64,000 bases of DNA from Oscillospiraceae bacterium (GCA_015064485.1 SVSD01000001.1:88989-152988), one strand, 5' to 3'. Positions 43,662-59,820 are shown, counted from the first letter of the stretch. Translations and numbers: made by a program. Notes: a model not told the origin generated them from the sequence alone.

Positions 43662-44540
43662 ATGAGAAAAGTTTCTTTTTTGATAACAAATGAATATGAC
43701 GGGATGAAGGTCGGCGATATATTAAAGCGAATGAACATTTCCTCAAGGCTTCTTCCCGAACTTAAGCGCACAGGCGGAATACTTTTAAACGGCAATATCG
43801 TAACCGTCAGAGAAAAGATAAAAGACGGCGATACCGTATCTGTCGTTCTTTATGAGGAAAGCTCCTCCGAAAATGTTATACCGACAAATATATCTCTTGA
43901 TATCATCTACGAGGATGAGGACATTCTTGCGGTCTGCAAGCCGAAGGATATGCCGGTCCATCCCAGCGCCTATAATTACGACAACACCCTCGGCAACGCC
44001 GTTATGTATTACTATCGTAATCAGAAATTCGTTTTCCGCCCGATAACCCGTCTTGACAGGGATACGACAGGTATTGTCATCATTGCAAAAAACAAGCTTT
44101 CCGCCGCCATCCTTTCGGATGAAATAAAAAACGGCGATATTAAAAAAACATATCTTGCATATCTTTCAAAAACTCCGAAAGACGATGTCGGCAAGATCGA
44201 AGCTCCGATTTTGCGAGAGACGGAAAGTGTTATAAAGCGCAAAGTGGATAAAGACGGCAAATACGCCCTTACCGAATATGAAATAATAAAAAAGCTTGAC
44301 GATGGCAGATGTATCGCAAAAGTTTCCCCCATAACAGGAAGAACCCATCAGATAAGAGTACATATGGCACATATAGGTTGTCCTCTGACATACGACTACC
44401 TTTACGGCACAGAAATCGAAGGAGAAACTTTATATTTACACTGTATGTCTTTGGAATTTACCCATCCTATAACAAGAGAAAAACTTATTTTGTCCTGCCC
44501 TCCGCCGGAAGACGGAGAGCTTTCACAAAAGCTTTCTTGA
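43662..44540 (+). CDS. RluA-family pseudouridine synthase with N-terminal S4-like domain
   Basis: Catalytic block ITRLDRDTTGIVIIAK and ..GRTHQIRVHMAHIG. Confidence 0.82.
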   Translation: MRKVSFLITNEYDGMKVGDILKRMNISSRLLPELKRTGGILLNGNIVTVREKIKDGDTVSVVLYEESSSENVIPTNISLDIIYEDEDILAVCKPKDMPVHPSAYNYDNTLGNAVMYYYRNQKFVFRPITRLDRDTTGIVIIAKNKLSAAILSDEIKNGDIKKTYLAYLSKTPKDDVGKIEAPILRETESVIKRKVDKDGKYALTEYEIIKKLDDGRCIAKVSPITGRTHQIRVHMAHIGCPLTYDYLYGTEIEGETLYLHCMSLEFTHPITREKLILSCPPPEDGELSQKLS

Positions 44541-45104
44541 ACTGAGTGTTTTTATGACAAAAAATGCGCCGACGGCTGTAAATACAGTTTCGGGAAGCAT
44601 ATATCCGCCGTTATAGAAAAGCGAATATAAATACGGGTTTGCACCGAACTGTTCAATAAAGCTTTCGGGGATCGAGTTTGCCCAGATTGTAACACCCGAA
44701 AGATAATGGCACAAAAATCTCAATGCGCAGACTCCGACCACCCCTAAAACCGAGGAAAGAGCACCTTTGTCCTTCAAAAAGCCAACAAGTCCGAGCACCG
44801 TAAATGCTAAAATGTAGTCAAGGATATAACAAACGATAAGGACAGTAGGCGTAAGTCCCCATCCGACGGCGCCCGACATAAGCGCCTGAGTTATCGAATA
44901 TACAAATGCAGCTCCAAGCCCCCACAACGGGCCGTGACGAAGAGCTGCAACGCACACGGGTAACATACTCAAAAGCGTAACAGCACCGCCAAAAGGCATC
45001 TCCCACACTTTTATAAAGCTTAATACAAATGATAATGCCACCATTATGGCACATTCCGAAAGAGCTCGCAGACGGGCTTTTTCTTTTTTTACCTGAGTTT
45101 TCAT
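44523..45104 (-). CDS. thiT: Thiamine transporter ThiT (ECF S component)
   Basis: ILDYILAFTVLG, RFLCHYLSGVTIWA and YSLFYNGGYMLP match blocks I recall from B. subtilis ThiT. ATG 45104 chosen because the longer ORF would include the riboswitch terminator. Confidence 0.8.
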   Translation of the reverse strand: MKTQVKKEKARLRALSECAIMVALSFVLSFIKVWEMPFGGAVTLLSMLPVCVAALRHGPLWGLGAAFVYSITQALMSGAVGWGLTPTVLIVCYILDYILAFTVLGLVGFLKDKGALSSVLGVVGVCALRFLCHYLSGVTIWANSIPESFIEQFGANPYLYSLFYNGGYMLPETVFTAVGAFFVIKTLSSRKLL

Positions 45105-45162
45105 TTTTATGATGATTCCTTTCGTTTTTTTGCAAACGCAACCTGCGGAAATTATTCTCCGG

Positions 45163-45326
45163 AAAAACAAAAACCGCCCCGAATATATCGGTGCGGTAAA
45201 TCAACATAAAAACTTTTATGAAATATCTTCCTACGCCGGTATTATCCGAACAGGTTAAAAGGGTTCGGGAAAATCCCATCTCAGCCGTATGCGGATATGG
45301 CCATATCCGTAAACAGCACCCCTGAT
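45163..45326 (-). promoter_or_regulatory. TPP (THI-box) riboswitch with terminator expression platform
   Basis: Minus-strand read caggggtgc..ggctgagatgggattttcccgaacccttttaacctgttcggataataccggcgtaggaa. Terminator accgcaccga-tatat-tcggggcggt plus tttttgttttt at 45163..45197. Confidence 0.85.
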
Positions 45327-45356
45327 ATATTCGATTGGTGCGAATGCATTGAAGAA

Positions 45357-47305: not shown

Positions 47306-47343
47306 GAAGGGACTTGAAGCCTTTCACAATTATTGAGAAAATC

Positions 47344-47377
47344 AAAAAGGAACTGTAAAATTATACAGTTCCTTTTT
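47344..47377 (-). terminator. Terminator of the pel-cotH-c-di-GMP operon; diverged GGAGCTGTA-family hairpin
   Basis: ggaactgta / tacagttcc, a compensatory G-C to A-T change relative to the other three copies. A/T runs on both sides. Confidence 0.75.
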
Positions 47378-47395
47378 ATATGCTTCGTATAATAT

Positions 47396-48949
47396 TTATG
47401 CCATCTGAGCCTTCATTTCTTTTTTATGCATATACATGGCGTGGTCTGCCTTTAAGAAAACATCAGTATATACATGGTCTATAGACGAATCGAAAAGCGC
47501 AACGCCTCTTGCTATTGATACATCAACCCTTTTATCGCCAACTTCAATGTAATCAGCAGAAAACGCTGCATCCATTTTTTCGATAAGTGTCCTGTAATTC
47601 TCAAAATCTCTTCCCTTCAAAACAACTGCAAATTCATCTCCGCCTATTCTGAAGATCGCACTTGTTTTAAATGTATCTGTGAGTATTTTTGCCGAGTGTA
47701 TAATAAGCTCATTTCCGACATCATGTCCATAGGTGTCGTTTGTTTTCTTGAGATTATTTATATCAGCCACTATTACACCAAAGGAAGGATTTCCAAGATT
47801 TATTTCCTTATTAAGCTGTTCTATTGCTTCGGTATAAGCTGTGCTGTTTTTTATACCTGTAAGAGAATCTCTGAACGCAAGGGCGTTTATATATTCAGAA
47901 TACTCGCGTATTTTTCCATATGTATCATTAAGCACACGGGAAAGAATACCTACTTCATCTTTCGAATCAATAATAAATTCTACTTCCTGTATTCCGGATG
48001 AAATATTTCCTGCCGCCTTGGTTAGTTCCTTTAGAGGCTTAACAATTCTGCTCGTCACCCAAAATGTATAAATAATCGAAAGAACAAGTACTACTAAAAA
48101 CGCGATTACTATATGGGTAAGCATCGGGCGTATACCGCTTTGGATATCTTTATATCCCGCGCGAAGTTCAAGGTTCATTCCGTTTACAAGAGCCTGTGTT
48201 GCCTTTGTATACTCGCCGTAAATCTCGGTTTTTTTGGATGTATTATAACAGGTTTCCATATCCTCTCCGATAAGAAGGGCACAGCCGTTTTCATAAACGG
48301 AAATGCTGTTTACCCGGTCAAGCAGATAATCAAAGTCCATATTAAATCCCAAAATACCGACAAAATCATCTTTGCTGTATACCGGAAGAACATACGATAC
48401 AACCATTTCCTTTGTAAAACGGCTGGGATGAGGTTCTACCCACGAACCGCCTATCGGACTTTTAGCGTTACTGTACTCTACGAGCTCCTCGTCGGTTATA
48501 AGAGAAAGTTTTGAAAAATCATCTTTGGAAAGTTCATATACGCTGCCGTCTTCCATATATTGACAGTAAAAACCTGATGTTATCCCTGTAAGTTCAGGTG
48601 AAAAGCAAAGATAATAAGAACTTGCTCCGGAAGTGTTATATGCCACTTCATCAAACAGATGACGAATTTTTTCCGTATATTCTGCAAGGTATTCTTGGTC
48701 GGAAAGCGACCCGGAGCTTATAAGCTCATGTGATACGTAATGTTCCATTATAGCTACAGATTTAACAAAATCATTAAGCATATCATCAATTTGTGCCACT
48801 TCTTTTTGTGCCACATTATTTAAAATTCTGTCAGCATCTTTATGCATTATTTCATGTGTTATTGTAACTGAGATTGATGTCACTATCAAAGTGATGACAA
48901 CAAGTGCTGAAATTACAACAAAAAGTATTTTGCCTTGTATGGTTTTCAA
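47396..48949 (-). CDS. Membrane-bound diguanylate cyclase: Cache-like sensor, HAMP, GGDEF
   Basis: N-terminal TM, periplasmic-type sensor, second TM + HAMP (IVKPLKELTKAAGNISSG), intact active site RIGGDEFAV. TTG start overlaps the upstream stop (TTGA). Confidence 0.85.
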   Translation of the reverse strand: MKTIQGKILFVVISALVVITLIVTSISVTITHEIMHKDADRILNNVAQKEVAQIDDMLNDFVKSVAIMEHYVSHELISSGSLSDQEYLAEYTEKIRHLFDEVAYNTSGASSYYLCFSPELTGITSGFYCQYMEDGSVYELSKDDFSKLSLITDEELVEYSNAKSPIGGSWVEPHPSRFTKEMVVSYVLPVYSKDDFVGILGFNMDFDYLLDRVNSISVYENGCALLIGEDMETCYNTSKKTEIYGEYTKATQALVNGMNLELRAGYKDIQSGIRPMLTHIVIAFLVVLVLSIIYTFWVTSRIVKPLKELTKAAGNISSGIQEVEFIIDSKDEVGILSRVLNDTYGKIREYSEYINALAFRDSLTGIKNSTAYTEAIEQLNKEINLGNPSFGVIVADINNLKKTNDTYGHDVGNELIIHSAKILTDTFKTSAIFRIGGDEFAVVLKGRDFENYRTLIEKMDAAFSADYIEVGDKRVDVSIARGVALFDSSIDHVYTDVFLKADHAMYMHKKEMKAQMA

Positions 48950-51075
48950 TTTTTCTTCTCCTTGGTTTTGCTTATTTCCGTGTTTGTTGTTTCCTCAACT
49001 TCTGTGAGTATTCTGTGGTAACCTTCAAGCATAATCTTTTTGCTTTCATCTTGTGTGCGGATACCGCTGCTTCTCACATTCACTATTCCAGCGGTCGGAT
49101 GATTCCAACGATATTCAAGCTGTACCGCCTTTTCGCCTTTTTTCATCACGCCGAATGAATTAACAACATATTTGATATCTTCTTTTAAAATACGGCTATA
49201 CCAGTAATCATAGCAGTCAACTGCAGACAACTTTTCCGAAAGGCCGAGAATATGTTCCATAACGCTGTCTACATAAAGCTCATATCGGTTATTTATTTCA
49301 TCAATACGAATTATCCACAAGCCGATATTATTTTTGTGAAGAATATTTTTCGCATCAAAATGTATTGCTCCGAATTCCTCTTTGAATCGCTGTATCTCTT
49401 CAAGTGCTTTCGTTCTGGCCTTATATTTCTCGCAAGCGGGCAAGATATATTTCTCCTCTATCTCCTGAGCTGTCAGCGGTTTATCGAAAAGATATCCCTG
49501 GAAAATATCTGCCTGTAAAGGTTCAAGTATTGAAAGCTCTCTTGCGGTTTCAACACCTTCGCAACAAGCGTCGATCGAATTTGTCTTTGCAAATTCAATA
49601 ACATTGCTGATAAGGCGGTAATTATAAGTATTCTTTTCTATCTCTGTTACAAAGCTTCGGTCTATTTTTATTTCATTGACATCAAGCTGCTTGAGATATC
49701 CGAGGTTAGAATAGCCTGTTCCGAAATCATCTATTGAAAAACGAACACCGTACGATTTTATATATTTGATGATCTCGTAATAATGCTTGTTTTCATTAAG
49801 CTGTATAGTTTCGGTAAGTTCTACCGTAAGAGCACTTCCGGGCAATTCTGTTTTTTTCAGTGCATTTATGATCTTATCTCCGAGTCTTGAATCATCAAAC
49901 TGAACTGATGAAAAATTGACAGCTACCTGAAGATCGGGGATACTTTTACGCCATTCTTTACACTGCAAAAGCGAATTTTCAAGTACCCACATTCCGACAG
50001 GATCAATAAGCCCCGTTTGCTCAAGAATCGGTATAAATTCGTCGGGAAACACTTTCCCGCGTTTTGGAGAATTATATCGAACAAGTGCCTCTACTCCGTA
50101 AAGTTCATATGTTAAGCTTTTTATCTGCGGCTGATATTGAATTTCAAAGCCTTCAAAGTTGTTCTGTACGCTCTCCTTTAGTTCTTCGAGAAGTGTAAGT
50201 TCGCATATTCTCTGATTTATCTGATCGGAAGAAAAGAATTCAACTTGTGTGCTTGAATTCTGCACAGCATTGTGCATTGTGATATTTACAGAGTCAATTA
50301 CTTGCGATACATCTATGAAAATGCTGTCGTCAATCGGAACTACTCCGGCAAAAACTGTGCATTTTTCGTTCATTCTGCCAGAAATCTCTTCGTACAGTTC
50401 TTGTATTTTTTCCATACCGCAACGGCTGATAATAATCGCAAACTTATTATGCTCAGTATGGTATGATTCCTCAACAAGTTCCAATTCTTCGAAAATGTCA
50501 GCCATTTCACAAAGAAGGCTGTTTCCGAAATCTCTTCCGTGAGTCAAATTGATGTCTGCAAGCGAAGGAACTACAAGCATCATAAGCCATCCCTTACCGT
50601 TGTAAAGTCTGTTTTTTAAATCGGCACGAAGTTTTGTTTTATTCCAAAGCCCTGTGATGGGATTGAACAGATGGCGTAACGCCTCCTCCGACAAACGGCC
50701 TATCATAACATGCGGAGTACCGTTTTCATCATGCAAAAGCTTTCCGCGCGAATTTACCCAGACAGTTTCGCCTTTTTTGTTGAAAAGTCTGAAATTCATA
50801 TCGTGCGAATCCCTTAAACCGCTTTTTATTTCTTCCAGGTCTTTGCAAAGTAATTTGCGGTCGGCAGGATGCACAACAGAAAGAAGCTCTTCGTGTGTAG
50901 TACCGCCGCTTTCCGCACTTTTCAGCTCAAATGTATCGCTGATATGGCCGAAAAACTGAATTCTGTTTTCAGGAAGATCAAACATAAACAAAAAATCGTC
51001 TGTTGTCTGATTGATCGCCGCAAGGTATTTTTTTATTGTCGAATAATCTTTTACTGAGCCTAATAAATTATCCAT
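48946..51075 (-). CDS. c-di-GMP phosphodiesterase: PAS, degenerate GGDEF, EAL, C-terminal PAS-like domain
   Basis: EAL motifs YGVEALVRY, ELTE, DDFGTGYSNL, KIDRSF, EGVE, QGY. GGDEF position reads EHNKF. ATG overlaps the upstream stop (ATGGATAA). Confidence 0.85.
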   Translation of the reverse strand: MDNLLGSVKDYSTIKKYLAAINQTTDDFLFMFDLPENRIQFFGHISDTFELKSAESGGTTHEELLSVVHPADRKLLCKDLEEIKSGLRDSHDMNFRLFNKKGETVWVNSRGKLLHDENGTPHVMIGRLSEEALRHLFNPITGLWNKTKLRADLKNRLYNGKGWLMMLVVPSLADINLTHGRDFGNSLLCEMADIFEELELVEESYHTEHNKFAIIISRCGMEKIQELYEEISGRMNEKCTVFAGVVPIDDSIFIDVSQVIDSVNITMHNAVQNSSTQVEFFSSDQINQRICELTLLEELKESVQNNFEGFEIQYQPQIKSLTYELYGVEALVRYNSPKRGKVFPDEFIPILEQTGLIDPVGMWVLENSLLQCKEWRKSIPDLQVAVNFSSVQFDDSRLGDKIINALKKTELPGSALTVELTETIQLNENKHYYEIIKYIKSYGVRFSIDDFGTGYSNLGYLKQLDVNEIKIDRSFVTEIEKNTYNYRLISNVIEFAKTNSIDACCEGVETARELSILEPLQADIFQGYLFDKPLTAQEIEEKYILPACEKYKARTKALEEIQRFKEEFGAIHFDAKNILHKNNIGLWIIRIDEINNRYELYVDSVMEHILGLSEKLSAVDCYDYWYSRILKEDIKYVVNSFGVMKKGEKAVQLEYRWNHPTAGIVNVRSSGIRTQDESKKIMLEGYHRILTEVEETTNTEISKTKEKKN

Positions 51076-51739
51076 GGTACTCTCCGTTATACTGTATCAT
51101 TGTTGCATCTTCAACACCTTCGATGGCTCTTATTTTTTCCATAAAGAATGTGTCATTGTTTTTGCAAAATACTTCGATTGCCATTTCGGTCTTTTCTTTT
51201 CTCAAAGTTTTGGATTTGATAAAGTATTTGATTTTTCCGAGAGCGCGGAGGATGTCATCTCCTGCGCTGTCCCCTGTGTAGTGAACAACAAGGATATAAA
51301 TCCTTCCCTTTTGCTGTTTGTTGTAAAAAATCATTATCATTGCCGTCATAACAATTGCGGCAACAACTACAAGCATATACATTCCCGCGCCCGATGTAAT
51401 ACCTGTTGTGATCGCCCAGAAAAGATACAAAAGGTCAAGCGGATCTTTTACCGCTGTACGGAAACGGACAATTGAAAGGGCACCGACCATACCGAGCGAT
51501 ATTACGATATTTGTACTGATTGCAAGAGTAACCATAGCTGTAAGCAATGTCATACCCACAAGGGTTATGGCAAAACTTCTTGAATAGATTACACCTGTAT
51601 AAAACTTTCTGTATACAAAGTAGATAACCGCACCCATAATAAGCGCTGTTATAAGGCCGAGCGCTATATTTGTTATGCCGGCACCGTCAAAAGCACCGGA
51701 CTCAAGTATTGATTTTTTTATAAAATCCTGTACACTCAT
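51068..51739 (-). CDS. DUF4956-like membrane protein (N-terminal 4-TM region + C-terminal soluble domain)
   Basis: ..LGMVGALSIVRFRTAVKDPLDLLYLFWAITTG.. GGAGGA RBS 5 nt before the ATG. Confidence 0.65.
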   Translation of the reverse strand: MSVQDFIKKSILESGAFDGAGITNIALGLITALIMGAVIYFVYRKFYTGVIYSRSFAITLVGMTLLTAMVTLAISTNIVISLGMVGALSIVRFRTAVKDPLDLLYLFWAITTGITSGAGMYMLVVVAAIVMTAMIMIFYNKQQKGRIYILVVHYTGDSAGDDILRALGKIKYFIKSKTLRKEKTEMAIEVFCKNNDTFFMEKIRAIEGVEDATMIQYNGEYHG

Positions 51740-51753
51740 AGTCTTCCTCCGAA

Positions 51754-52476
51754 TTAATTTTCATACCAGTATTTGAAGCTGTTCATATATTCTGTTTTTT
51801 CGTAGCAAAGCACATATTTTGATACCGCCGTAAATTCCGATGCTCTGTCGGGAAGAACATCTCTTACAAAACGAGGTAAAAATTCGGTATATTTTACCTC
51901 CATTACACATTTGCCCGGTTCGAGTACGGGTAATGTAGGAAGAGTGTCATCAAAAATATCATAGCTTCCGATGGCTGCTCTTACATCCATATCGAATGTT
52001 ATGCGAACAGTCCCCGCATCGAGTATCCACGGTTCTCTGTCGTAATCGACGATAGTACGGGGCCGCATCATATTACTGACACATTCAACATAAAACTCGC
52101 GGCAAAGCGGGTATTGGCTATGTAAAAGAAAGTCATAATCTCCGTCAAGTATCTTATATACTTCATCTCTTGTGAGTTTTGCCGCTTCTTTGAAGATATA
52201 GCTTCCGAATTTCTTTTTTCGTTCCAGCTTGATACTGCTGTCAGAGCAGTTATAGATACGGATACGATACTTTTTTCGCTCAAGTACGCCCGCATCCTTT
52301 TCATCGTATGCAGTGTTAAAATAGTCGTCAAAATAAAGACTGCGTATCATATATCCGCCCGCTTTTGCATGTTTGTCAAGCTCTAAAAACGGAGGAAGCC
52401 TTTTACAGATAAGCTCTTTCTGAGCCATATCGATAAGATACTTCCATTCGTGTCTGTATCTTTCAGTCTTCGACAT
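51754..52476 (-). CDS. VTC-domain (polyphosphate-polymerase-like, triphosphate-tunnel fold) protein
   Basis: N-terminal RHEWKY (ExExK-type tunnel motif), later IKLERKKK and VMEVKY strands. ATG 52476 with GGAGGA 5 nt upstream, lying inside the last codons of the CotH gene. Confidence 0.7.
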   Translation of the reverse strand: MSKTERYRHEWKYLIDMAQKELICKRLPPFLELDKHAKAGGYMIRSLYFDDYFNTAYDEKDAGVLERKKYRIRIYNCSDSSIKLERKKKFGSYIFKEAAKLTRDEVYKILDGDYDFLLHSQYPLCREFYVECVSNMMRPRTIVDYDREPWILDAGTVRITFDMDVRAAIGSYDIFDDTLPTLPVLEPGKCVMEVKYTEFLPRFVRDVLPDRASEFTAVSKYVLCYEKTEYMNSFKYWYEN

Positions 52477-54232
52477 AAACATCCTCCACAATGTTGCGGT
52501 TTGCGTCTACATAGAAGCATTTTACACCGTATACTTTACCGTTTTCTACTATATAGGAATCGAATGCTGTCTGAGTTTGTCCGCCGGAGTCTTTTGCAGT
52601 TACACGAATGAAATATTGTCCCTGCGGCGGAACATCGAACTGAACGGTAGGTATTTTCAAATCAGTCATTTTTATAATGGGATTGTTAAAAGTATAATCG
52701 GAAGCAAGTTCAAATGTATAGGAGATCATTTCGCTGTCAAAGGTGTAAGAAGCCTCCCACAAAAGATTAGCTTTTCCGTCTTCAACCGTCGGAACACCTA
52801 TATAAAAGGGCATCGGCTTTTCGTAGGACTCTTTATAACTTATGTAATTGCTCTTAATTTCCGGCACAATTGAATTTACAACCGCATCATACTGAACGGG
52901 AGTTATCGGCATATAGCGAGCATCCTTTCCCGAAAAGACAAGCGGCTTTAAAAGCTCGGAATATGTTTTTACATATTCTTCAACTCTTCCGTCCAAAAGC
53001 TTTTCGTAAAGGTCCTCGACCGCCTCGTCAAGCTTTTCACGGTACAATTCGGATTTAAGACAACGCTTAAAAAGGACATTTCCCCAATAGTTACTTACTC
53101 CGTTTTCCCACTCTGTATAATCATTTCTGCCAAGAAGGGCATATTGTCCTCTGTTCAGCATACCGTCAAGGTCCCATGAAAGGATATAAAAGCGGTCGCC
53201 GTTTAATGGGCTGTACATATAAAAGTTTCGGTTCTGGGTATCAACATTTCCAAGTAAAATCTGGAATGCCATCCAGTAAGCTATATTTTCTATATCAAGA
53301 TCCTCTTCGAGTATCGTTTCGATGGGGATAGAATAATCGTTGATTCTGTCAAGCAGGCGAATAAGCTTTGTATGGTCATCATCGCCCTTGATCTCAAGTA
53401 TTTGTTCGAATGCTGTAAGATTGTATCTTTGGTCGTCTTTCAGAACTATAATATCTTCATAACGGTAAAACTCACACAGATTTATTTTGTAAAGATGGCC
53501 TTTTTTATCAAGACCGTGACGCTCGAGCGCAGTTTTATTAAGCTGTTCGACCTGTGTATATATACCGTAATCCTCAAATTTCGCATCATTACCCGAGGTC
53601 AGATCCTTTACATAAAGATGCACAAAAGTGGTACGAAGACTCATAAGCTCGTCAATGCCTGTGAGAAGATCAAATCCTAATTTGTTTCGGAATCTGAGTC
53701 CGTCGCTTTGATGTTTGTTAAGAGCAATTGTCGTCTGACCCCGCCAATCGCCTTTATTGTCTTTAAGCTTAATTTTATAGTTTTTCTGTACATTTCGGCT
53801 GGAGGACTGACCTCTGATTTGCACGGTACAGTTGGGAGCAACATGACCGTAACCCAGTTCCCCGGGTATAAGGCCGTTTTCATCTCCGACTTGTATGAGC
53901 CCGGCTATCTGGTATCGGTCAACACCCATTTCCTCATAATCGTATGCGGAATATGTGTTTATTTCTTCCCATGTGTGGTCGGTGTTCTCAGCGGAATTGC
54001 CGTAGGAAACCGTAAGATACATTGTTACGATCTCGGTATTGTCAAGATTCTCATAAATAAGGTTTTTGTCGCGTATATGTATATCTTCCTCTGTATTTAT
54101 CTCATCTTTTTCGATCACCATACCGAAATCTGTGTCTATCTCACTTTCAAATTTTTCTCCGCAGCCGGAAAGACACATTGCTGAAAAAAGCATCACAAAT
54201 ATACAAATAAAGGATAATTTTTTATTTTTCAT
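52463..54232 (-). CDS. CotH-family kinase-like lipoprotein
   Basis: ATG 54232 gives MKNKKLSFICIFVMLFSAMCLSGC (lipobox). CotH-type blocks ..GLRFRNKLGFDL.., ..NRNFYMYSP.. and ..ILSWDLDG.. C-terminal beta-rich domain. Confidence 0.7.
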   Translation of the reverse strand: MKNKKLSFICIFVMLFSAMCLSGCGEKFESEIDTDFGMVIEKDEINTEEDIHIRDKNLIYENLDNTEIVTMYLTVSYGNSAENTDHTWEEINTYSAYDYEEMGVDRYQIAGLIQVGDENGLIPGELGYGHVAPNCTVQIRGQSSSRNVQKNYKIKLKDNKGDWRGQTTIALNKHQSDGLRFRNKLGFDLLTGIDELMSLRTTFVHLYVKDLTSGNDAKFEDYGIYTQVEQLNKTALERHGLDKKGHLYKINLCEFYRYEDIIVLKDDQRYNLTAFEQILEIKGDDDHTKLIRLLDRINDYSIPIETILEEDLDIENIAYWMAFQILLGNVDTQNRNFYMYSPLNGDRFYILSWDLDGMLNRGQYALLGRNDYTEWENGVSNYWGNVLFKRCLKSELYREKLDEAVEDLYEKLLDGRVEEYVKTYSELLKPLVFSGKDARYMPITPVQYDAVVNSIVPEIKSNYISYKESYEKPMPFYIGVPTVEDGKANLLWEASYTFDSEMISYTFELASDYTFNNPIIKMTDLKIPTVQFDVPPQGQYFIRVTAKDSGGQTQTAFDSYIVENGKVYGVKCFYVDANRNIVEDVYVED

Positions 54233-55685
54233 TATTACTGCCCTCCAGTTTATCTTCGAGAAATTCGCCAAGACGCGAAAACATTCCTGATCTGTCCTCG
54301 CCGACAAGCGGCTGAACAGACAAAATGTAATACGGCAGCCGCTTTGTAAAATAGTCAAGCCGCAAAACTGTACAAACCGCAAAAACAAGCGATGCAAAAA
54401 GGAAGCCGAATCCGTAATATACTTGCGAGAAAAACAGCGATATTATTGTAAAAATCACAGTTGTTGCCGCAAAAGCCGCTGTGGTAACAAGCGTTCCCGT
54501 ATAATCGGTAAAGTAAAGAAGTATCAGCATCAGCATATTTCCGACAGCGTAAATTCCGTATGCAACGCAAAGTGTGCGGAAGTATCCTCGCATAATTTCA
54601 TTGAAGCCCAAAGGAAGCAGATCAAGAAGATATCCGCCGAGCGCAATTACGACGGCTGTGAACAAAAGCTGTTTCAATGCCGTATAAAAAATTTCGGTTT
54701 TAAGAGTTCCGAGCATTTCCTTTTCTGCTTGTTTTATATTGTCAATTGTTCCTTTATCATTATAAAGGCTGTAATGATTTCTGTATTTGGGATAGAAGTT
54801 TACCTCTACAGACACCACAAAATTTACCGTAGTCATAAGGGCTGTCATAAATGCCAGCAGCGCAGGAACATCATGCCAGGGTGCACCGTAAAAAAGTCCG
54901 TGTACCCGTACACCTATATCGGAAAACCACATAATTACGAGATGGGAAAACATACCGATATTCATAAAAAGTCCCGAAAGCGCAAGGGGTAAAAACGAAT
55001 CTATCCATTTTAAAAATGTAAATGCTCCCAAGGTTGTATGAGGAAAATATCTGTGTAAAAGGATAACATTCCAAACAAGCATTACTCCATATCCGAGAGT
55101 AACTGCAAAAAGCAGGGATTCAATTGCGGGAAGACAAAGCCACAAAAGCCATCCGCCGACAATAAGACTTACAGCAACAGATGTCAGAAATGAAAGAAAT
55201 ATTCCCTTATAGTCCTTTATCGCCGAAAGAAAACTCATCGCATTCCAGACAATAATAAGTTCGCCGAAAAGTATGAAGCAAAGTATCCCTTGCAAAGCCG
55301 TAGCTCCCGAAAAAATCAGAAAAATTCCGTAAAGGATACATCCGATAGACAGCATTATAACCGTCGAACCCCAGAACGAGGGAAGCACCGCTTCTTTCTT
55401 CTCTTCAAAAAGCATATCCGCCACATATCTTGTTACGACCATAGAAAAGAAGGATGTAACCGTAACCGAAGCAAGGAGAGTATATGTTATCATACATATA
55501 AGAAGCTCCCTTTGGTAAAGCGCAGTATTAAAAAATATGCAAAGCATCGTAATTCCGATAAGAAGAAGCACACCGAGAAGCATCGGGCCTGTACATATTA
55601 CCGCCGCATATCCGTATGCCTTACAAGAATTCAGCACACCTTTTTTGGCAAATAGTTTTTTTAGTTCAAAACCGATCCCGGCCAT
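54222..55685 (-). CDS. pelG: PelG-like polysaccharide export/biosynthesis membrane protein
   Basis: MAGIGFELKKLFAKKG.. N-terminus and ~12 TM segments. Position after pelF. Confidence 0.7.
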   Translation of the reverse strand: MAGIGFELKKLFAKKGVLNSCKAYGYAAVICTGPMLLGVLLLIGITMLCIFFNTALYQRELLICMITYTLLASVTVTSFFSMVVTRYVADMLFEEKKEAVLPSFWGSTVIMLSIGCILYGIFLIFSGATALQGILCFILFGELIIVWNAMSFLSAIKDYKGIFLSFLTSVAVSLIVGGWLLWLCLPAIESLLFAVTLGYGVMLVWNVILLHRYFPHTTLGAFTFLKWIDSFLPLALSGLFMNIGMFSHLVIMWFSDIGVRVHGLFYGAPWHDVPALLAFMTALMTTVNFVVSVEVNFYPKYRNHYSLYNDKGTIDNIKQAEKEMLGTLKTEIFYTALKQLLFTAVVIALGGYLLDLLPLGFNEIMRGYFRTLCVAYGIYAVGNMLMLILLYFTDYTGTLVTTAAFAATTVIFTIISLFFSQVYYGFGFLFASLVFAVCTVLRLDYFTKRLPYYILSVQPLVGEDRSGMFSRLGEFLEDKLEGSNNEK

Positions 55686-57091
55686 TCGTTTTCCACCTCT
55701 TTATAGAGATCTCTGTATTTTGTAAGCATAATATTGTATCTGAAATACTCATACGCTCGTTTTTGTCCTATTTCGCCCATTTTAAGACGAACTTCTCTTG
55801 ATTCGCATAAAAGCTCCATCGCATCGGCAAGTTTTTCTCTCTGCATAGGAGGAGCAAAATATCCCGCTTTTCCGAGATTGTCTCCCGGCTTTCCGTTTAA
55901 AAGCTCGCTGCAGCATCCGACATCGGTTGTAACCGCAGGACGCTGTGCTGCAAAAGATTCAAGAACCGATAAAGGCTGTCCTTCCGAAATGCTTGTAAGC
56001 AATGTGAAATCAAGCTTTTCAAAATATTCGATTATATTTACCCGTCCTGTGAAAATTATTTTATCTTCAAGGCCAAGCTGTCTTACCAAAGCATAACATT
56101 CATCGGCATAATCCTGATCGTCAACACCGCCCATTATGTGAAGTCTGACATTATCTTTTCTTGCACAAAGCTCGAAAAATGCGTATATCATTGTTTTTAT
56201 ATCTTTGATGGGTGCAAGTCTTACAACCGCACCGATATCGACAAACCCGTCATCTTCTTTAAGAGGAATATTGCAAAGTCTTTCGTAGCTGATGCCGTTT
56301 TCGATAACTCTGCATTTTGACGGATCGCATCCCATATCTATCTGTGTATGCATCGCCCTTGTGAAAAGCGAAGTTACACGGAATGATCTTTCATATGCAA
56401 GATCTGAAAGCATATAAAAGAAATCTATCCAATGCGGTTTAAAAGCTCTTGCCACCCATTTCGCACGGATTATTTCTTCTTCCCTTTCGCGGGTATAGAT
56501 TCCGTGTTCTGTAAGAAGCATCGGCTTTTTCATAATATACGACGCCATCGACGCCAAAAGGCCGCCGTATCCTGTACATATTGCGTGATAACAATCGGCT
56601 TTGGGTATTCTTGTACCCATCAGATAAAGAACCGGCAAAAGACGGGATCTTACAGAATGGAATGTATCTGAAAATGCGATAAAAGGGAAATCCCTTTTAC
56701 AGGTTTCTGTAAGAGTTTCAAGAAAGCTTTCGCTTTTAAGGTATGACATAGGATTTATACGGCGCACCTGATACATTTCAAAAAGAAGGTTCCAATCAGG
56801 CTTGTCCGAGGAAACAAGGCGTCTGAGCGCCTCCTTTTCCTTTTCGTTAAAATGATGGTCAAATATCCCCGAATCCTTTACTCTCAGTGCATCGTCGAGA
56901 AATACCTGCTCGACTTCCACAACATTCTGCGGAAGAGTATATACAAATTTATCTTTGTCCTGAGCTTTTGCACCAATTACCCAAAGCACAAATTCGTGTT
57001 CGGGCATTTCGTTTATGTATTGATGCATCCAGGTGGAAACGCCTCCGTTGATATACGGATAACAGCCTTCCAAAACCAAACAGATCCTCAC
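55661..57091 (-). CDS. pelF: PelF-like GT4 glycosyltransferase
   Basis: GTG start after AGGAG. MRICLVLEGCYPYINGGVSTWMHQ (PelF N-terminal domain). EX7E block EGQPLSVLE. Confidence 0.8.
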   Translation of the reverse strand: MRICLVLEGCYPYINGGVSTWMHQYINEMPEHEFVLWVIGAKAQDKDKFVYTLPQNVVEVEQVFLDDALRVKDSGIFDHHFNEKEKEALRRLVSSDKPDWNLLFEMYQVRRINPMSYLKSESFLETLTETCKRDFPFIAFSDTFHSVRSRLLPVLYLMGTRIPKADCYHAICTGYGGLLASMASYIMKKPMLLTEHGIYTREREEEIIRAKWVARAFKPHWIDFFYMLSDLAYERSFRVTSLFTRAMHTQIDMGCDPSKCRVIENGISYERLCNIPLKEDDGFVDIGAVVRLAPIKDIKTMIYAFFELCARKDNVRLHIMGGVDDQDYADECYALVRQLGLEDKIIFTGRVNIIEYFEKLDFTLLTSISEGQPLSVLESFAAQRPAVTTDVGCCSELLNGKPGDNLGKAGYFAPPMQREKLADAMELLCESREVRLKMGEIGQKRAYEYFRYNIMLTKYRDLYKEVENEWPGSVLN

Positions 57092-57100
57092 GGTATACTC

Positions 57101-58954
57101 CTATTTCAAAGTTATTTCAACAACAGGTTCAGTTGCCGCAAGCAGATATAATCCGCCGGTTTGATGTGTCAAAGTTGCACCCTTTACATTTTCGGGTGTC
57201 TTTTCATTAAACCGTACAAGCATCTGAACTTCATCGTAAAAATTATCTATTGTTATTTTAACGCAGTCTTCATAAATTTCTGTCTTTGCCGACGCTGCAA
57301 CATACCTTTGTACCGCCGCCGAGGTTTCGGTACCCGTCATATTGCGAAGACCTTTTGCCGAACCATAAAGCCATGACAAAAACGAATTGAATCTTTTTTT
57401 CATTTCTCCCCAGCCAAGCTCCGCTCCTCTTTCGGGGTCAAGAGCATCGTCGGGGTGAGTAAAATGGGAATTGATAAAATGCAGATTAAGCTCGGATACA
57501 GCTGCAAGGCTTTGGAAATCATCAAGAATAAATCCTGAAATTACACGGGGCTGATCGACAATTCCGTTTTTATCCACATCAAACTCCTGCATACAGCCAA
57601 ACTGCAGTTCACCATATGCCTCATCGTCAAAATAAATTCCCGAGATTGTTCTTATTTGAGGATATTCCTTTATTAAGAAATCTCTTCCCTCGTCTGCCAA
57701 AAGGTTTGACGGCGGAACATACAAGGCGAATTCTGTATCGGGGAAAAGTTTGTCGCATAGATCAACAAGCTCATCAAAAGCTTTCTTCATCGCCTCTTCC
57801 GATTCCCATATCTTATACGGAAATACAGACATATAATCGCCGTAAAGACAAAGGGGCTGATGGTTATATCCGTGATATCCCAACTCTCCGCCTTTTCGGA
57901 GAAGCATATTCCCGAAATTTAAAAATGTGCCTGTATCGGGCTTTGCTTCAAGCGTTCCGTCTACATTATCGTCATACGATTCGATGGCAAGACCCGTATA
58001 TTTAATACCGTATTTATCGGCAAAATTCAGCATATCCGGCCACCAGATATTTATGTAAAAATCACGGATCGTCGTCTGATAATCGCGCATAATATATTCG
58101 CTGTTGCCGCTCGGTATCTGCGACGGGAAATCGTCAAGATAATATACCGATGCATTTATGACGGGATATGCACACACATCAGAAAGAAGGCTGTACGATG
58201 CCGCATAAAACCCGCGCATTGCCTTTTCATATATTCCGATATTGTCAACTACAAATATGCCTTCTCCGTATTTCGTTCTCCATACAAGCGGGACACCATT
58301 CTCATTTTCTGCTGCTGCATAAACCTTTGCGTTATCTGACAAAACTACTGTCTTTGCACATTCAAACGGATTTGAAAGTCCGAAAGCCCGGCCGCCGCCT
58401 ATCATAAATCCTTCGTTTAGAAAGATACTTTCAACCACATAATACTCGGGTGCGACATCGTCAATCCCGATCATCTGGATAATTGCCGAGGAATAGGCGT
58501 TTGATTCAAGTGTAAGCGGAAACCAAGCGGCGCCGCCGTTATGAACCCACTCTACAAGATCTATCAAAGACCCACCCATCGGGGAAAGATCTGCAAGAAG
58601 TACGATAACTTCCGAAAAGCCTTCGAACGAAGGAATGCTATCCTTTGAAAGGTCTATATCCTTATATCCGACCTTCATATCGTTGAGAATACAAAAGAAC
58701 TCCTCGTATGCGTCAGATGATGCGGCATCCCCGCTGTCACGCAAAAGAAGCGCCTTTTGCGGAAGGACAGAATATACTTCTTCTTTGGTAAAAGTATTTT
58801 CGTCGGGCAAAAATTCAAGCTGTCTTTGAAATCGGTTTGCCTGAATACCGCTCAGTTCTATAAACAGTATTGTTGCAATAGCCAAAAACACAAAGAGTAT
58901 TGCAAGAATTCCCTTGTATTTGAATTTGTATATCCGATGTATCAATTCGTCCAA
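57101..58954 (-). CDS. pelA: PelA-like deacetylase-domain protein (DUF2194-like), membrane anchored
   Basis: N-terminal TM. Candidate CE4-type metal triad YLDDFPS and YHGYNH. Position between pelE and pelF as in Gram-positive pel loci. TTG start is tentative. Confidence 0.5.
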   Translation of the reverse strand: MDELIHRIYKFKYKGILAILFVFLAIATILFIELSGIQANRFQRQLEFLPDENTFTKEEVYSVLPQKALLLRDSGDAASSDAYEEFFCILNDMKVGYKDIDLSKDSIPSFEGFSEVIVLLADLSPMGGSLIDLVEWVHNGGAAWFPLTLESNAYSSAIIQMIGIDDVAPEYYVVESIFLNEGFMIGGGRAFGLSNPFECAKTVVLSDNAKVYAAAENENGVPLVWRTKYGEGIFVVDNIGIYEKAMRGFYAASYSLLSDVCAYPVINASVYYLDDFPSQIPSGNSEYIMRDYQTTIRDFYINIWWPDMLNFADKYGIKYTGLAIESYDDNVDGTLEAKPDTGTFLNFGNMLLRKGGELGYHGYNHQPLCLYGDYMSVFPYKIWESEEAMKKAFDELVDLCDKLFPDTEFALYVPPSNLLADEGRDFLIKEYPQIRTISGIYFDDEAYGELQFGCMQEFDVDKNGIVDQPRVISGFILDDFQSLAAVSELNLHFINSHFTHPDDALDPERGAELGWGEMKKRFNSFLSWLYGSAKGLRNMTGTETSAAVQRYVAASAKTEIYEDCVKITIDNFYDEVQMLVRFNEKTPENVKGATLTHQTGGLYLLAATEPVVEITLK

Positions 58955-59820
58955 AACGCAAGTGCCTCCTTTGTTTTTGACGATAAGTAAATATGGCTGT
59001 TTTCAACTTTGGTTATGAATTTTCTTATTTCATCGCCTTTATTGAGCGAAGCTAAATACTGTATGTTCAAAAGTATATATTCGTCACAAGCCGGCCATTT
59101 TTCGCCCATTATCGAAATAATATTTTCGGCGGAATAAAAGTTTTTGCGCTTTAGTTCATTTTCCGCAAGCCGGGCGTAGTCAGAAATATCTTCGGAAACT
59201 TCAATCTTTTTGTGCATCAGTTGCGAAAACAATTCTCTGTTCATAACTTCAACCTGACCCTGCATAAGGTTCTGAGATAAACACCCCCATAAGAAATCGC
59301 AGTATTCGGAAAGAACCTTCATATCGTTGGGATTTGCATTATACTCGTTGTCAAGCTTTTGAAGCATATAGTCGTTTTCTTTTGATATTTCCACCATCGC
59401 AGTTACTGCATAATGAACAACTTCTGTATCGTCGTTGTTGCCCGCCTTTTGCAAAAATTCGACATAATCTCCCGGATTGTCATTCAAAACATCCATAATA
59501 AGAGAACGGCGTTCTCTTGCGGAATTTATGATAAGCGCCTCTTCTATCGGGACTGTCATATCAGACCTTTTGTCATCTACTGTAATACTTCGGTAAAGCT
59601 CTGACTCAAGCTTTAACTTTTCCACATCAATTTCCGCCGAATCATCAGCGTCAAAAGCGATCTGGAAATGCAAGATCATAACAATAAGCGGTCCCCAAAA
59701 GGGAAGAAAAAGCGCAACGAAAAACATATATTTATGTACCGACAAAATTTCGAATTGAATTCCCAGGAATATAAGCAGGCACACCAAAAGATGCAAAACC
59801 GCCGGTATTATGTAAATCAT
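58942..59820 (-). CDS. pelE: PelE-like protein (two N-terminal TM segments + helical repeat domain)
   Basis: Architecture and position only. No strong motif. Confidence 0.45.
   Translation of the reverse strand: MIYIIPAVLHLLVCLLIFLGIQFEILSVHKYMFFVALFLPFWGPLIVMILHFQIAFDADDSAEIDVEKLKLESELYRSITVDDKRSDMTVPIEEALIINSARERRSLIMDVLNDNPGDYVEFLQKAGNNDDTEVVHYAVTAMVEISKENDYMLQKLDNEYNANPNDMKVLSEYCDFLWGCLSQNLMQGQVEVMNRELFSQLMHKKIEVSEDISDYARLAENELKRKNFYSAENIISIMGEKWPACDEYILLNIQYLASLNKGDEIRKFITKVENSHIYLSSKTKEALAFWTN

Follow-up and report, generated by a model that had tools for sequence, protein, structure and literature searches.

A CotH-family lipoprotein, a Vtc4-like tunnel protein and a DUF4956 membrane protein encoded in a predicted pel operon of an Oscillospiraceae bacterium: a possible route for polyphosphate to the cell exterior

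The window, i.e. the whole 64,000-nucleotide stretch of DNA analysed, contains a ten-gene minus-strand operon that starts with a Gram-positive pelD-E-A(DA)-F-G cluster, ends with two c-di-GMP turnover genes and carries the genes for a CotH-family protein, a VTC-type triphosphate tunnel protein (VTC/TTM) and a DUF4956 membrane protein as genes 6-8:

59833..62619, minus strand: pelD-like gene, 928 aa, first in the operon (Pfam HD_5 2.4e-26, HD 1.5e-16)
58942..59820, minus strand: pelE-like gene, 292 aa (assigned from its position and from phmmer hits on its counterpart in related pel loci)
57101..58954, minus strand: pelA deacetylase-like gene, 617 aa (Pfam DUF2194 7.9e-141)
55661..57091, minus strand: pelF glycosyltransferase gene, 476 aa (Pfam DUF3492 1.9e-75, Glycos_transf_1 6.5e-25)
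54222..55685, minus strand: pelG, 487 aa (Pfam PelG 2.2e-132)
52463..54232, minus strand: CotH-family kinase-like lipoprotein, 589 aa, with a C-terminal FN3/Ig-like domain (Pfam CotH 9.6e-67)
51754..52476, minus strand: VTC-type triphosphate tunnel protein, 240 aa, cytoplasmic, polyphosphate-polymerase-like (Pfam VTC 2.8e-31)
51068..51739, minus strand: DUF4956 membrane protein, 223 aa (Pfam DUF4956 1.9e-9, above the gathering score)
48946..51075, minus strand: PAS-GGDEF-EAL protein, 709 aa (Pfam EAL 1.3e-59, PAS_3 1e-20, GGDEF 2.7e-5)
47396..48949, minus strand: Cache-HAMP-GGDEF diguanylate cyclase-like protein, 517 aa, last gene of the operon (Pfam GGDEF 5.7e-26, HAMP 1.5e-7, dCache_1 5.9e-8)
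47343..47378, minus strand: terminator-like hairpin, 15 pairs then a T-run, directly 3' of the last gene (consensus scan, pattern match only)

The pelD, pelE, pelA(DA), pelF and pelG homologues are contiguous on one strand, PelD and PelE being assigned by position, and the Pfam matches to PelG, DUF3492 and DUF2194 agree with a first-pass annotation of this DNA that had placed Pel genes directly upstream of the trio. The pelD-like gene occupies the PelD position when compared with related loci. Its product has an HD domain of the HD-GYP type at the N-terminus and a PelD-like region at the C-terminus, together with an epimerase-like domain and TM helices; residues 353-514 form an NCBIfam GDP-L-fucose-synthase-like stretch, and epimerase Pfam matches were also obtained on the PelD-equivalent gene of three other loci (L081, L083, L088). 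The pelE-like protein matched no Pfam family. The CotH, VTC and DUF4956 genes are translationally coupled, all on the minus strand and at the coordinates first assigned to them. pelG and cotH overlap by 11 nt and cotH and the VTC gene by 14 nt, the VTC ATG at 52476 being preceded by GGAGGA and the cotH TGA lying at 52465..52463; a 14-nt spacer containing GGAGGA separates the VTC and DUF4956 genes, and the DUF4956 stop is overlapped by 8 nt by the PAS-GGDEF-EAL gene. Read from the sequence, these junctions match the earlier description of three genes that overlap or abut, with the VTC start codon in the CotH stop region. In 80 related genome loci, set with VTC on the plus strand, the order pel-CotH-VTC-DUF4956 was found wherever the contig extends far enough, and because this order is kept the three-gene arrangement is not attributable to chance.

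Encoded by genes 6-8 of a ten-gene Gram-positive Pel operon, the trio is the accessory module described before as cotH / poly-phosphate polymerase / DUF4956. Whitfield et al. 2020 (PMC7112168) listed "cotH, poly-phosphate polymerase, DUF4956" as Pel accessory genes, and the S. intermedius counterparts of cotH, PPP and DUF4956 are SIR_1594-1592 (PMC12345266). The gene layout is already published and is not new; what looks new here is the apparent intactness of the encoded enzymes and the occurrence of the trio away from Pel. With the Gram-positive pel operons (PMC7112168, PMC12345266) the window shares the three families in the same order directly after pelD-E-A(DA)-F-G, an extra epimerase-like domain on the N-terminal side of PelD, which correlates with the accessory genes (Whitfield 2020, PMC7112168), a secreted CotH with an FN3-like tail and a DUF4956 protein with multiple TM segments and a putative ACT-like part; with the bifidobacterial pel variant it shares a diguanylate cyclase/phosphodiesterase gene after DUF4956. 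It differs from them in lacking a DUF4832 glycoside hydrolase, in carrying two downstream c-di-GMP genes rather than one, in the additional HD-GYP-type domain of PelD and in its host, an uncultured Ruminococcaceae/Clostridia MAG with a predicted Pel polymer.

The VTC (PF09359) domain was matched with 109.3 bits against a cut-off of 23; the protein had no other Pfam domain and no hydrophobic segment reaching the transmembrane threshold on a hydropathy scan, in line with its initial description as a cytoplasmic protein devoid of signal or TM segments. Its profile matched yeast Vtc4 (E=1.1e-11), and its AlphaFold model (pLDDT 95.2) retrieved the Vtc4 structures 3g3r/3g3q as top Foldseek matches (E ~1e-13, TM 0.67-0.70). 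The conserved K12, R71, R73, K87, K96 and Y145 correspond to Vtc4 K200, R264, R266, K281, K294 and Y359, and R147, R158, E193, K195, S219 and K220 to R361, R373, E426, K428, S457 and K458. Whether the basic tunnel residues might be missing had been raised in the first-pass annotation; on alignment, the window protein has the identical residue at every basic tunnel and catalytic position of Vtc4, and across 83 homologues these residues are either invariant or conserved to at least 90%. They include the positions used to inactivate yeast VTC (R264A/R266A/E426N), and K220 is the equivalent of K458, which the inactive paralogues Vtc2/3 lack. From sequence and model, the protein looks like a catalytically intact Vtc4-like tunnel and is a predicted polyphosphate polymerase.

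We consider it improbable that this protein is instead a non-polymerase tunnel enzyme (tripolyphosphatase, nucleotide cyclase or phosphohydrolase) that pairs with DUF4956 in signalling or housekeeping and has no part in phosphate export. Functions vary widely within the TTM superfamily, and ygiF, CYTH and thiamine triphosphatase folds are among the lower-ranked Foldseek matches of the model; T198 of Vtc4 is replaced by E10, part of an E-x-K motif that we take to be nearer to that of canonical hydrolases, and in locus L097 a VTC-DUF4956 pair lies between the housekeeping genes miaB and mutS. However, the best sequence and structure matches are to the Vtc4 polymerase, every Vtc4 tunnel-lining residue is kept, including K200 and K458, and the Pfam VTC match is well over the gathering score. 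The likeness to the yeast VTC complex (3G3Q, 8I6V) extends over Pfam family, fold, all tunnel and catalytic residues and the combination of a cytoplasmic enzyme with one or more membrane partners, the yeast destination compartment being topologically outside the cytosol. Unlike the yeast complex, the window VTC protein has no SPX sensor domain, fused three-helix VTC transmembrane domain or Vtc1-like subunits, and DUF4956, its separate membrane partner, is MgtC-like and bears no detectable likeness to the VTC channel.

The CotH (PF08757) domain spans residues 137-461 (226.2 bits, cut-off 23.8), its profile matched B. cereus CotH 5jd9 (E=2.3e-18), and residues ~488-560 gave weak FN3 matches. In the N-terminus, MKNKKLSFICIFVMLFSAMCLSGC, translation and hydropathy show a positively charged n-region, a hydrophobic core and a lipobox, L-S-G-C, whose cysteine is Cys24, and CotH homologues of other loci also carry lipoboxes or signal anchors. 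The predicted signal peptide and lipobox agree with the initial placement of CotH outside the membrane.

54161..54172, minus strand: lipobox L21-S22-G23-C24 of the CotH signal peptide (translation and hydropathy)
53171..53242, minus strand: CotH catalytic core, D331-x4-N336 ... D354-x-D356 (alignment to B. cereus CotH)

The 23-residue distance between D331 and D354 equals that in B. subtilis; the two align with the B. cereus NFD and WDYD motifs and correspond to B. subtilis D228 (catalytic Asp) and D251 (metal-binding Asp), mutation of which inactivates CotH. N329, D354 and D356 were invariant and D331 at least 90% conserved in the CotH alignment (A2); N336, absent from the listed conserved columns, falls opposite the HNY-motif N of B. 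cereus in the profile alignment. A possible lack of kinase catalytic residues had also been considered at the outset: the catalytic Asp/Asn/Asp set is present, and the kinase active site looks catalytically intact. The window protein resembles the Bacillus spore-coat Ser kinase (5JD9) in family and in the aligned catalytic Asp, the Asn five residues on and the metal-binding Asp, but Bacillus CotH is a protein of the mother cell, whereas the window protein is an exported lipoprotein that is longer by ~130 residues at the N-terminus and carries an FN3-like domain at the C-terminus. The spore-coat location is not matched, the lipoprotein signal peptide putting the window protein outside the cell. 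No CotB/CotG-type Ser-rich substrates are encoded in the operon. CotH proteins of other lineages are fused to the carbohydrate-associated domains LTD, Fn3_assoc and CHB_HEX_C_1.

For the DUF4956 protein, a hydropathy scan gave four strong hydrophobic segments and the AlphaFold model, of low confidence (pLDDT 61.6), five helices followed by a beta-alpha-beta-beta-alpha-beta tail with weak ACT fold matches (E ~1e-2), compatible with the N-terminal block of about four TM segments and soluble C-terminal domain first described. An alignment of 10 sequences, down to 34% identity (A3), delimited the most conserved block and showed R92, R94 and K98, located after TM3, to be invariant.

51383..51493, minus strand: most conserved DUF4956 block, G83-G119 (GMVGALSIVRFRTAVKDPLD..FW..G..GAG; alignment A3)

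Weak Pfam MgtC (PF02308) matches, the best at E=9.2e-4 and below any curated cut-off, were obtained for 9/10 diverse DUF4956 homologues; the window protein itself had no match to this family. These weak but consistent matches and the model suggest that DUF4956 is a distant relative of MgtC with 5 TM helices and an ACT-like tail; the two would share an arrangement of some five TM helices ahead of a small, cytoplasmic, ACT-like domain (low-confidence model). It differs from the MgtC family in its own invariant GMVGALSIVRFRTAVKDP motif and in its genetic link to a VTC enzyme, no such link having been described for MgtC. Against the PDB, the DUF4956 profile matched no VTC chain, i.e. had no sequence likeness to the yeast channel subunits.

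VTC and DUF4956 genes were co-located in 15/15 divergent loci, drawn from three phyla and including Clostridia, Bacilli, Actinomycetota and one locus with a TonB-dependent receptor, and were adjacent in 14 of them. Because this co-location holds across three phyla, it supports VTC and DUF4956 as a putative functional pair. Of the 15 loci, 11 had CotH and no more than 3 had Pel, which contradicts a published statement; in L089 and L097 the VTC-DUF4956 pair stood without CotH. The layout of one protein inside, one in the membrane and one outside is found again in different phyla, and there were at least three unrelated polysaccharide contexts: one with Pel, one with a HEAT-repeat protein beside a chitin-synthase-like GT2, and one with multiple glycosyltransferases; several trio loci had no polysaccharide genes within 10 kb, and at one locus an exopolyphosphatase gene adjoins the module. 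In C. perfringens NELoc-2 and a Planococcus plasmid, the order is VTC - DUF4956 - CotH - hypothetical - HEAT - chitin-synthase-like GT2; as in the window, the three families are adjacent and tied to a synthase-type glycosyltransferase, but VTC comes first, CotH third and pel genes are absent. The 2010 annotation labelled the membrane-protein gene after each VTC gene 'tubulin/FtsZ'; we infer that this gene is the DUF4956 homologue, given where it lies, its size and its predicted place in the membrane.

In line with the first idea of the first-pass annotation, we tentatively propose that VTC and DUF4956 synthesise polyphosphate (polyP) and pass it outward, thereby supplying CotH for the phosphorylation of a surface or matrix substrate. 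The soluble VTC tunnel enzyme and the 5-TM MgtC-like DUF4956 protein would form one membrane-associated unit, in which VTC, docked probably on the invariant cytoplasmic R92-x-R94-x3-K98 loop or on the ACT-like tail of DUF4956, would link phosphate drawn from ATP into a polymer at the inner membrane face. This polyanion, or the phosphoryl groups it carries, could be passed outward with the aid of the inside-negative membrane potential, and the lipid-anchored CotH, which would have no obvious ATP supply outside, may use it as a phosphate source to phosphorylate a protein or the polysaccharide itself, tuning Pel retention and cell aggregation. VTC and DUF4956 would be the core pair, CotH a frequent client and Pel one of several attached polysaccharide systems. 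This proposal is favoured by the domain identities and translational coupling, by the retention of the Vtc4 residues, the Vtc4-like model and the CotH catalytic residues and export signals, by the recurrence of the layout across phyla and in at least three polysaccharide contexts, and by the exopolyphosphatase gene next to one locus. It is also favoured by yeast VTC, which couples synthesis to translocation into a compartment topologically outside the cytosol (PMC9911596).

The genetic evidence comes from a 2025 S. intermedius study in which the cotH, PPP and DUF4956 homologues were each deleted (PMC12345266). Deletion of the CotH or DUF4956 homologue altered aggregation and the level of Pel, which speaks for the proposal, but the two deletions shifted Pel in opposite directions, which speaks against it, and deletion of the VTC homologue SIR_1593 gave no aggregation phenotype, so that a strict linear supply line from VTC through DUF4956 to CotH is disfavoured. 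The proposal is further weakened by the view of the S. intermedius preprint authors that polyP remains cytoplasmic. In sequence, DUF4956 is unlike the yeast channel subunits, and its sole detectable relative, MgtC, is not known to act as a channel; given the low confidence of the DUF4956 model, no pore could be assessed. We also know of no protein-kinase-fold enzyme that takes polyP as donor, which counts against a polyP supply to CotH.

Several of these observations would fit an equally tentative cytoplasmic reading, in which polyP stays inside, the MgtC-like DUF4956, its ACT-like domain sensing a metabolite, adjusts phosphate/ATP homeostasis or Pel synthase output, and CotH acts independently outside, on surface or host proteins, with whatever ATP exists there, the genes being co-regulated and not forming one pathway. 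The MgtC likeness, weak but consistent in 9/10 DUF4956 homologues, the ACT-like tail, the pair without CotH in L089 and L097, the lack of an aggregation phenotype on VTC deletion, the differing effects of the DUF4956 and CotH deletions on Pel and the preference of the preprint authors for cytoplasmic polyP and a host-directed kinase are in its favour. Co-regulation alone, however, fails to explain the adjacency of a cytoplasmic, a membrane and a secreted protein across distant phyla and different polysaccharide loci, and would leave a secreted kinase with intact catalytic residues lacking a donor; for a gut or rumen commensal MAG, a host-directed kinase would meet no obvious need.

The second idea of the first-pass annotation, of an anionic partner for a cationic, partly deacetylated Pel, is extended here to exported polyP that cross-links Pel, with CotH binding, anchoring, trimming or attaching polyP rather than acting as a protein kinase; this seems unlikely to us. 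Pel is cationic, the module directly follows a pel cluster with a deacetylase-like PelA and adjoins other synthase-type polysaccharide genes elsewhere, and the CotH fusions to LTD, Fn3_assoc and CHB_HEX_C_1 would suit such a role. Against this, the S. intermedius polymer is predominantly GalNAc-rich and therefore little deacetylated, the VTC deletion strain still aggregated, several trio loci are devoid of polysaccharide genes within 10 kb, and the strict conservation of the catalytic Asp/Asn/Asp points to phosphotransfer and not to mere binding.

The proposed supply of polyP to CotH can be taken to a bolder form, which we regard as a long shot: VTC and an oligomeric MgtC-like DUF4956 would constitute a two-protein bacterial VTC-type synthase-translocase that extrudes polyP, and secreted CotH proteins would be polyP-dependent phosphotransferases phosphorylating matrix polysaccharides or surface proteins. 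If true, this would account for kinase activity outside the bacterial cell and would provide a bacterial counterpart to the eukaryotic VTC polymerase.

The CotH, VTC and DUF4956 genes lie within a run of ten genes on the reverse strand, extending from 62619 to 47396 and assigned as follows by Pfam.

59833-62619, reverse strand: PelD-type protein of 928 aa, HD-GYP/epimerase-like
reverse strand: PelE-position protein of 292 aa, no Pfam family
reverse strand: PelA deacetylase-like protein (DUF2194)
reverse strand: PelF (DUF3492 and GT1)
reverse strand: PelG (E=2.2e-132)
52463-54232, reverse strand: CotH (E=9.6e-67)
51754-52476, reverse strand: VTC protein (E=2.8e-31)
51068-51739, reverse strand: DUF4956 protein (E=1.9e-9, exceeding the gathering score)
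47396-51075, reverse strand: PAS-GGDEF-EAL protein, then Cache-HAMP-GGDEF protein

The first-pass annotation had described the three genes of the trio as overlapping or abutting, with the VTC start codon inside the cotH stop region, and every detail of its observation was confirmed. Read from the sequence, the pelG and cotH genes overlap by 11 nt and cotH and VTC by 14 nt (VTC ATG at 52476 with GGAGGA upstream, cotH TGA at 52465..52463), the spacer of 14 nt between VTC and DUF4956 contains GGAGGA, and DUF4956 overlaps the EAL gene by 8 nt. The trio genes are co-translated, and a strong terminator-like hairpin (47378..47343, a consensus match only) follows the last gene of the operon. Translational coupling extends to the two c-di-GMP turnover genes (47396-51075, reverse strand), which are coupled to each other as well as to DUF4956; a GGDEF match downstream of DUF4956 was found at a single locus (L006) among those of 80 close relatives, and this gene tail seems specific to the lineage of the window.

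The PelD-type protein (59833-62619, reverse strand) begins with an HD-GYP-type HD domain (Pfam HD_5, 2.4e-26), which matches a c-di-GMP phosphodiesterase family in NCBIfam and precedes the epimerase-like and membrane/PelD parts. The presumed c-di-GMP receptor of the Pel machinery appears to carry a fused domain for c-di-GMP degradation. The PelD homologues of three divergent loci (L081, L083 and L088) show the epimerase domain only. Just upstream of the pel operon, a membrane acyltransferase gene of the Acyl_transf_3 family (62791-63750, reverse strand) encodes a protein that might O-acylate a polysaccharide. A gene for a thiamine transporter of the ThiT/YuaJ type (44523-45170, reverse strand) has a TPP riboswitch upstream of it (45211-45333, reverse strand; Rfam, 77.3 bits).

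Searching 1.84 billion representatives at E<=1e-3 yielded 4579 homologues of the VTC protein, 83 of which, 34-55% identical to it, were aligned. Invariant among these 83 were R8, E10, K12, K69, R71, R73, K96, Y145, R158, D162, E193, K195 and K220, with K87, R147 and S219 at least 90% conserved. Single-sequence searches of the PDB with each of the three trio proteins returned nothing useful and profiles were needed; the VTC profile matched yeast Vtc4 (3g3q, E=1.1e-11; also 8i6v), and residue correspondences were counted along this alignment.

Correspondence between yeast Vtc4 and the window VTC protein (profile alignment)
Vtc4 K200: K12
Vtc4 R264: R71
Vtc4 R266: R73
Vtc4 K281: K87
Vtc4 K294: K96
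Vtc4 Y359: Y145
Vtc4 R361: R147
Vtc4 R373: R158
Vtc4 E426: E193
Vtc4 K428: K195
Vtc4 S457: S219
Vtc4 K458: K220

The basic tunnel residues, to whose presence the first-pass annotation had tied its reading, are all there. The combination R264A/R266A/E426N has been used for inactivating yeast VTC (PMC9911596). An AlphaFold model built on the 83-homologue alignment (pLDDT 95.2, pTM 0.91) had as its best structural matches Vtc4 with AppNHp or polyP (E about 1e-13, TM 0.67-0.70), which ranked above Vtc2/3, YgiF and the CYTH enzymes. No hydrophobic segment was detected, in agreement with the proposed absence of signal and transmembrane segments. Judged from its sequence, the protein is cytoplasmic and retains the whole active site of the Vtc4 type; as neither an SPX domain nor a transmembrane domain was found in it, the homology is to the catalytic core only. 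Many bacterial VTC proteins carry basic, low-complexity N-terminal extensions rich in Pro, Gln, Lys and Arg, of 140-390 residues in the homologues P0138, P0143, P0157, P0252 and that of locus L089 (2059-3348), which could possibly bind polyP or the membrane. Long homologues (360-620 aa) were considered as fusions to DUF4956 or CotH and rejected, since their extensions are of this type and hold no Pfam domain.

The N-terminus of CotH, MKNKKLSFICIFVMLFSAMCLSGC, forms a lipoprotein signal whose lipobox is LSGC, bearing out the extracytoplasmic placement made at first reading. Lipoboxes or signal anchors also occur at the N-terminus of CotH homologues of other loci, so this location is conserved. 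A profile of 12 trio-locus CotH proteins matched B. cereus CotH (5jd9, E=2.3e-18), aligning GNVD(331)TQNRN(336) and WD(354)LD(356) with the NFD...HNY and WDYD motifs. The spacing of D331 and D354, 23 residues, is that of D228 and D251 of B. subtilis CotH, our reference for the catalytic residues, substitution of which inactivates the kinase (PMC7821199). Within the trio-locus alignment conservation is complete at N329, D354 and D356 and at least 90% at D331; N336 pairs with the Asn of HNY in the profile match and is absent from the listed conserved columns. The kinase catalytic residues whose presence had been in question are there, and CotH is predicted to be exported and to have its kinase site intact. 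Weak FN3/Ig matches at residues ~488-560 agree with the FN3 domain reported for the S. intermedius homologue SIR_1594.

DUF4956 was correctly recognized as a membrane protein with a soluble C-terminal domain, having four to five hydrophobic segments followed by a tail. A near-invariant block, GMVGALSIVRFRTAVKDPxD..FW..G..GAG, is common to ten sequences with identities as low as 34%; within it R92, R94 and K98 are invariant. The structure model is weak (pLDDT 61.6, from a shallow alignment); at this low confidence it has five long helices (22-46, 54-73, 76-95, 100-118 and 121-144) and a beta-alpha-beta-beta-alpha-beta tail, with which the fold search returned weak ACT-domain matches only. Basic stretches occur in the loop at residues 43-56 and at the start of the tail; because these would face inward by the positive-inside rule, a cytoplasmic location is predicted for the R92/R94/K98 cluster as well as for the ACT-like domain. 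Weak Pfam matches to MgtC in nine of ten homologues (best E=9.2e-4) agree with the description of DUF4956 in a study of S. intermedius (PMC12345266). The profile search of the PDB did not match the yeast VTC subunits (Vtc1/3/4 transmembrane regions), and DUF4956 is therefore not a recognizable homologue of the eukaryotic polyP channel.

The genome-contig scan with the VTC protein covered close relatives only, 80 loci 68-92% identical and mostly from Collinsella, the others from Clostridia MAGs, Blautia, Roseburia and Faecalibacterium; all have the order pel-CotH-VTC-DUF4956 wherever the contig extends. Because VTC proteins of Collinsella (Actinomycetota; L011-L080) are about 70% identical to that of the window (Clostridia) and the whole locus is shared, the data suggest that the pel-trio locus moved horizontally among gut bacteria. 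Wider sampling drew on gene contexts of divergent representatives and on plasmid records.

Gene content of the 15 divergent loci
L081 (Thermincola): pel, trio, second CotH, GH114 gene
L083: pel, trio, DUF4832
L085, L086: LTD-Fn3_assoc-CHB_HEX_C-CotH protein, VTC, DUF4956; no pel genes
L088: decayed pel cluster and trio
L089: VTC and DUF4956 only
L090: GH16, chitin-synthase-like GT2, VTC, DUF4956, truncated LTD protein
L091: VTC and DUF4956 on a short contig
L092 (Pseudobutyrivibrio plasmid pNP95): trio within a GT2/GT4/GT61/pyruvyl-transferase polysaccharide locus
L093 (Planococcus plasmid): VTC, DUF4956, CotH, hypothetical protein, HEAT-repeat protein, chitin-synthase-like GT2
L094 (Nonomuraea): VTC, DUF4956, CotH
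L095: CotH, VTC, DUF4956
L096: DUF4956, CotH/NosD/beta-helix protein, one hypothetical gene, VTC; adjoins a TonB-dependent receptor
L097: miaB, VTC, DUF4956, mutS
P0252 locus: exopolyphosphatase gene, then LTD-CotH, VTC, DUF4956

VTC and DUF4956 occur together at all 15 loci and are directly adjacent at 14; CotH is present at 11 and absent from two, the contig ending in the other two, and Pel is found at three. The conserved core is the VTC-DUF4956 pair, which CotH frequently joins as third member. The trio without pel genes at L085, L086, L092-L096 and the P0252 locus, in several phyla, means that the statement that its synteny is confined to the Pel locus (PMC12345266) does not hold more broadly. 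At L081 (8253-14075) two CotH paralogues flank VTC-DUF4956, with the GH114 hydrolase on the opposite strand. The Ppx-GppA exopolyphosphatase gene at the P0252 locus is divergent and adjoins the LTD-CotH, VTC and DUF4956 genes, which connects them, weakly but independently, with polyP metabolism. C. perfringens NELoc-2 (CP4_0460-0465) has the same layout as the Planococcus locus; there, the cytoplasmic-membrane proteins after each VTC gene were annotated in 2010 as 'tubulin/FtsZ, GTPase' (PMC2879425) and, by position and size (222-226 aa), are most likely DUF4956, the VTC-membrane protein pair being duplicated around a resolvase gene. Scanning viral contigs revealed DUF4956 at one locus and no VTC locus, and the trio as an anti-phage defence system was rejected, having no PADLOC match.

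Contiguous cotH, poly-phosphate polymerase and DUF4956-like genes directly after pelDEA(DA)FG were described in streptococci and clostridia by Whitfield et al. 2020 (PMC7112168), together with a correlated extra PelD epimerase domain and a bifidobacterial variant with a diguanylate cyclase/phosphodiesterase in place of DUF4832. The window matches this description, including the epimerase-like PelD stretch and the c-di-GMP genes, and is a further case, in a Ruminococcaceae-type uncultured MAG, of a published, functionally unsolved module. Each homologue was deleted in S. intermedius in a 2025 mBio study (PMC12345266): loss of CotH (SIR_1594) or DUF4956 (SIR_1592) decreased aggregation in artificial sputum by >50%, with lower and higher Pel signal, respectively, and no effect was reported for loss of VTC (SIR_1593). 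The effect on Pel-dependent aggregation is documented in one species. Our additions are the complete residue mapping, the resemblance of the membrane partner to MgtC, weak as it is, rather than to VTC, and the finding that VTC-DUF4956(-CotH) occurs widely outside Pel.

The first-pass annotation had speculated that VTC and DUF4956 could export polyP as a donor for extracellular CotH; its observation stood and this interpretation is supported in part. The three proteins would form one inside-membrane-outside pathway, polyP, or phosphoryl groups from it, being made at the membrane, delivered outward and used by CotH outside the cell. Neither the S. intermedius study nor Whitfield et al. 2020 proposes export by DUF4956 or polyP as CotH donor, so the mechanism is new as an idea and the locus is not. 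Yeast VTC argues for export: it obligately couples synthesis with translocation, and the receiving compartment is topologically external (PMC9911596). The recurrence of the inside-membrane-outside topology across phyla points the same way, as does the extracellular kinase, which otherwise has no donor. The inside-negative bacterial membrane potential, which favours anion export, is a further argument. Against the pathway stand the null phenotype of the SIR_1593 deletion, the opposite shifts in Pel levels upon deletion of DUF4956 and CotH, and a DUF4956 without channel homology; moreover, we know of no protein-kinase-fold enzyme that uses polyP. We infer each mechanistic step and regard the export/donor hypothesis as attractive and directly testable, yet tentative. 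A regulatory or cytoplasmic role of the trio is a comparably uncertain possibility; the preprint version of the S. intermedius study, which states that both enzymes keep their catalytic residues, suggested that polyP "may remain in the cytoplasm" and raised a host protein as a possible CotH target. The remaining probability is shared by a non-polymerase TTM function and by polyP serving as counter-ion in the matrix.

Bacterial polyP synthesis is attributed to PPK1 and PPK2; if working, a polymerase of the VTC type that is paired with a dedicated membrane protein would add a third route, similar to that of eukaryotes. Secreted kinases of the CotH family are widespread, and nothing we know of explains which phosphate donor they use extracellularly, a matter on which the trio offers a concrete hypothesis testable by mutation. 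Should the simpler regulatory reading be true, the locus would just add to the known instances of a published set of accessory genes. As the trio affects Pel-dependent aggregation in a pathogen (S. intermedius, PMC12345266) and is attached to several different exopolysaccharide systems of gut, rumen and environmental bacteria, it may contribute a general step, overlooked so far, to the assembly or tuning of the biofilm matrix.
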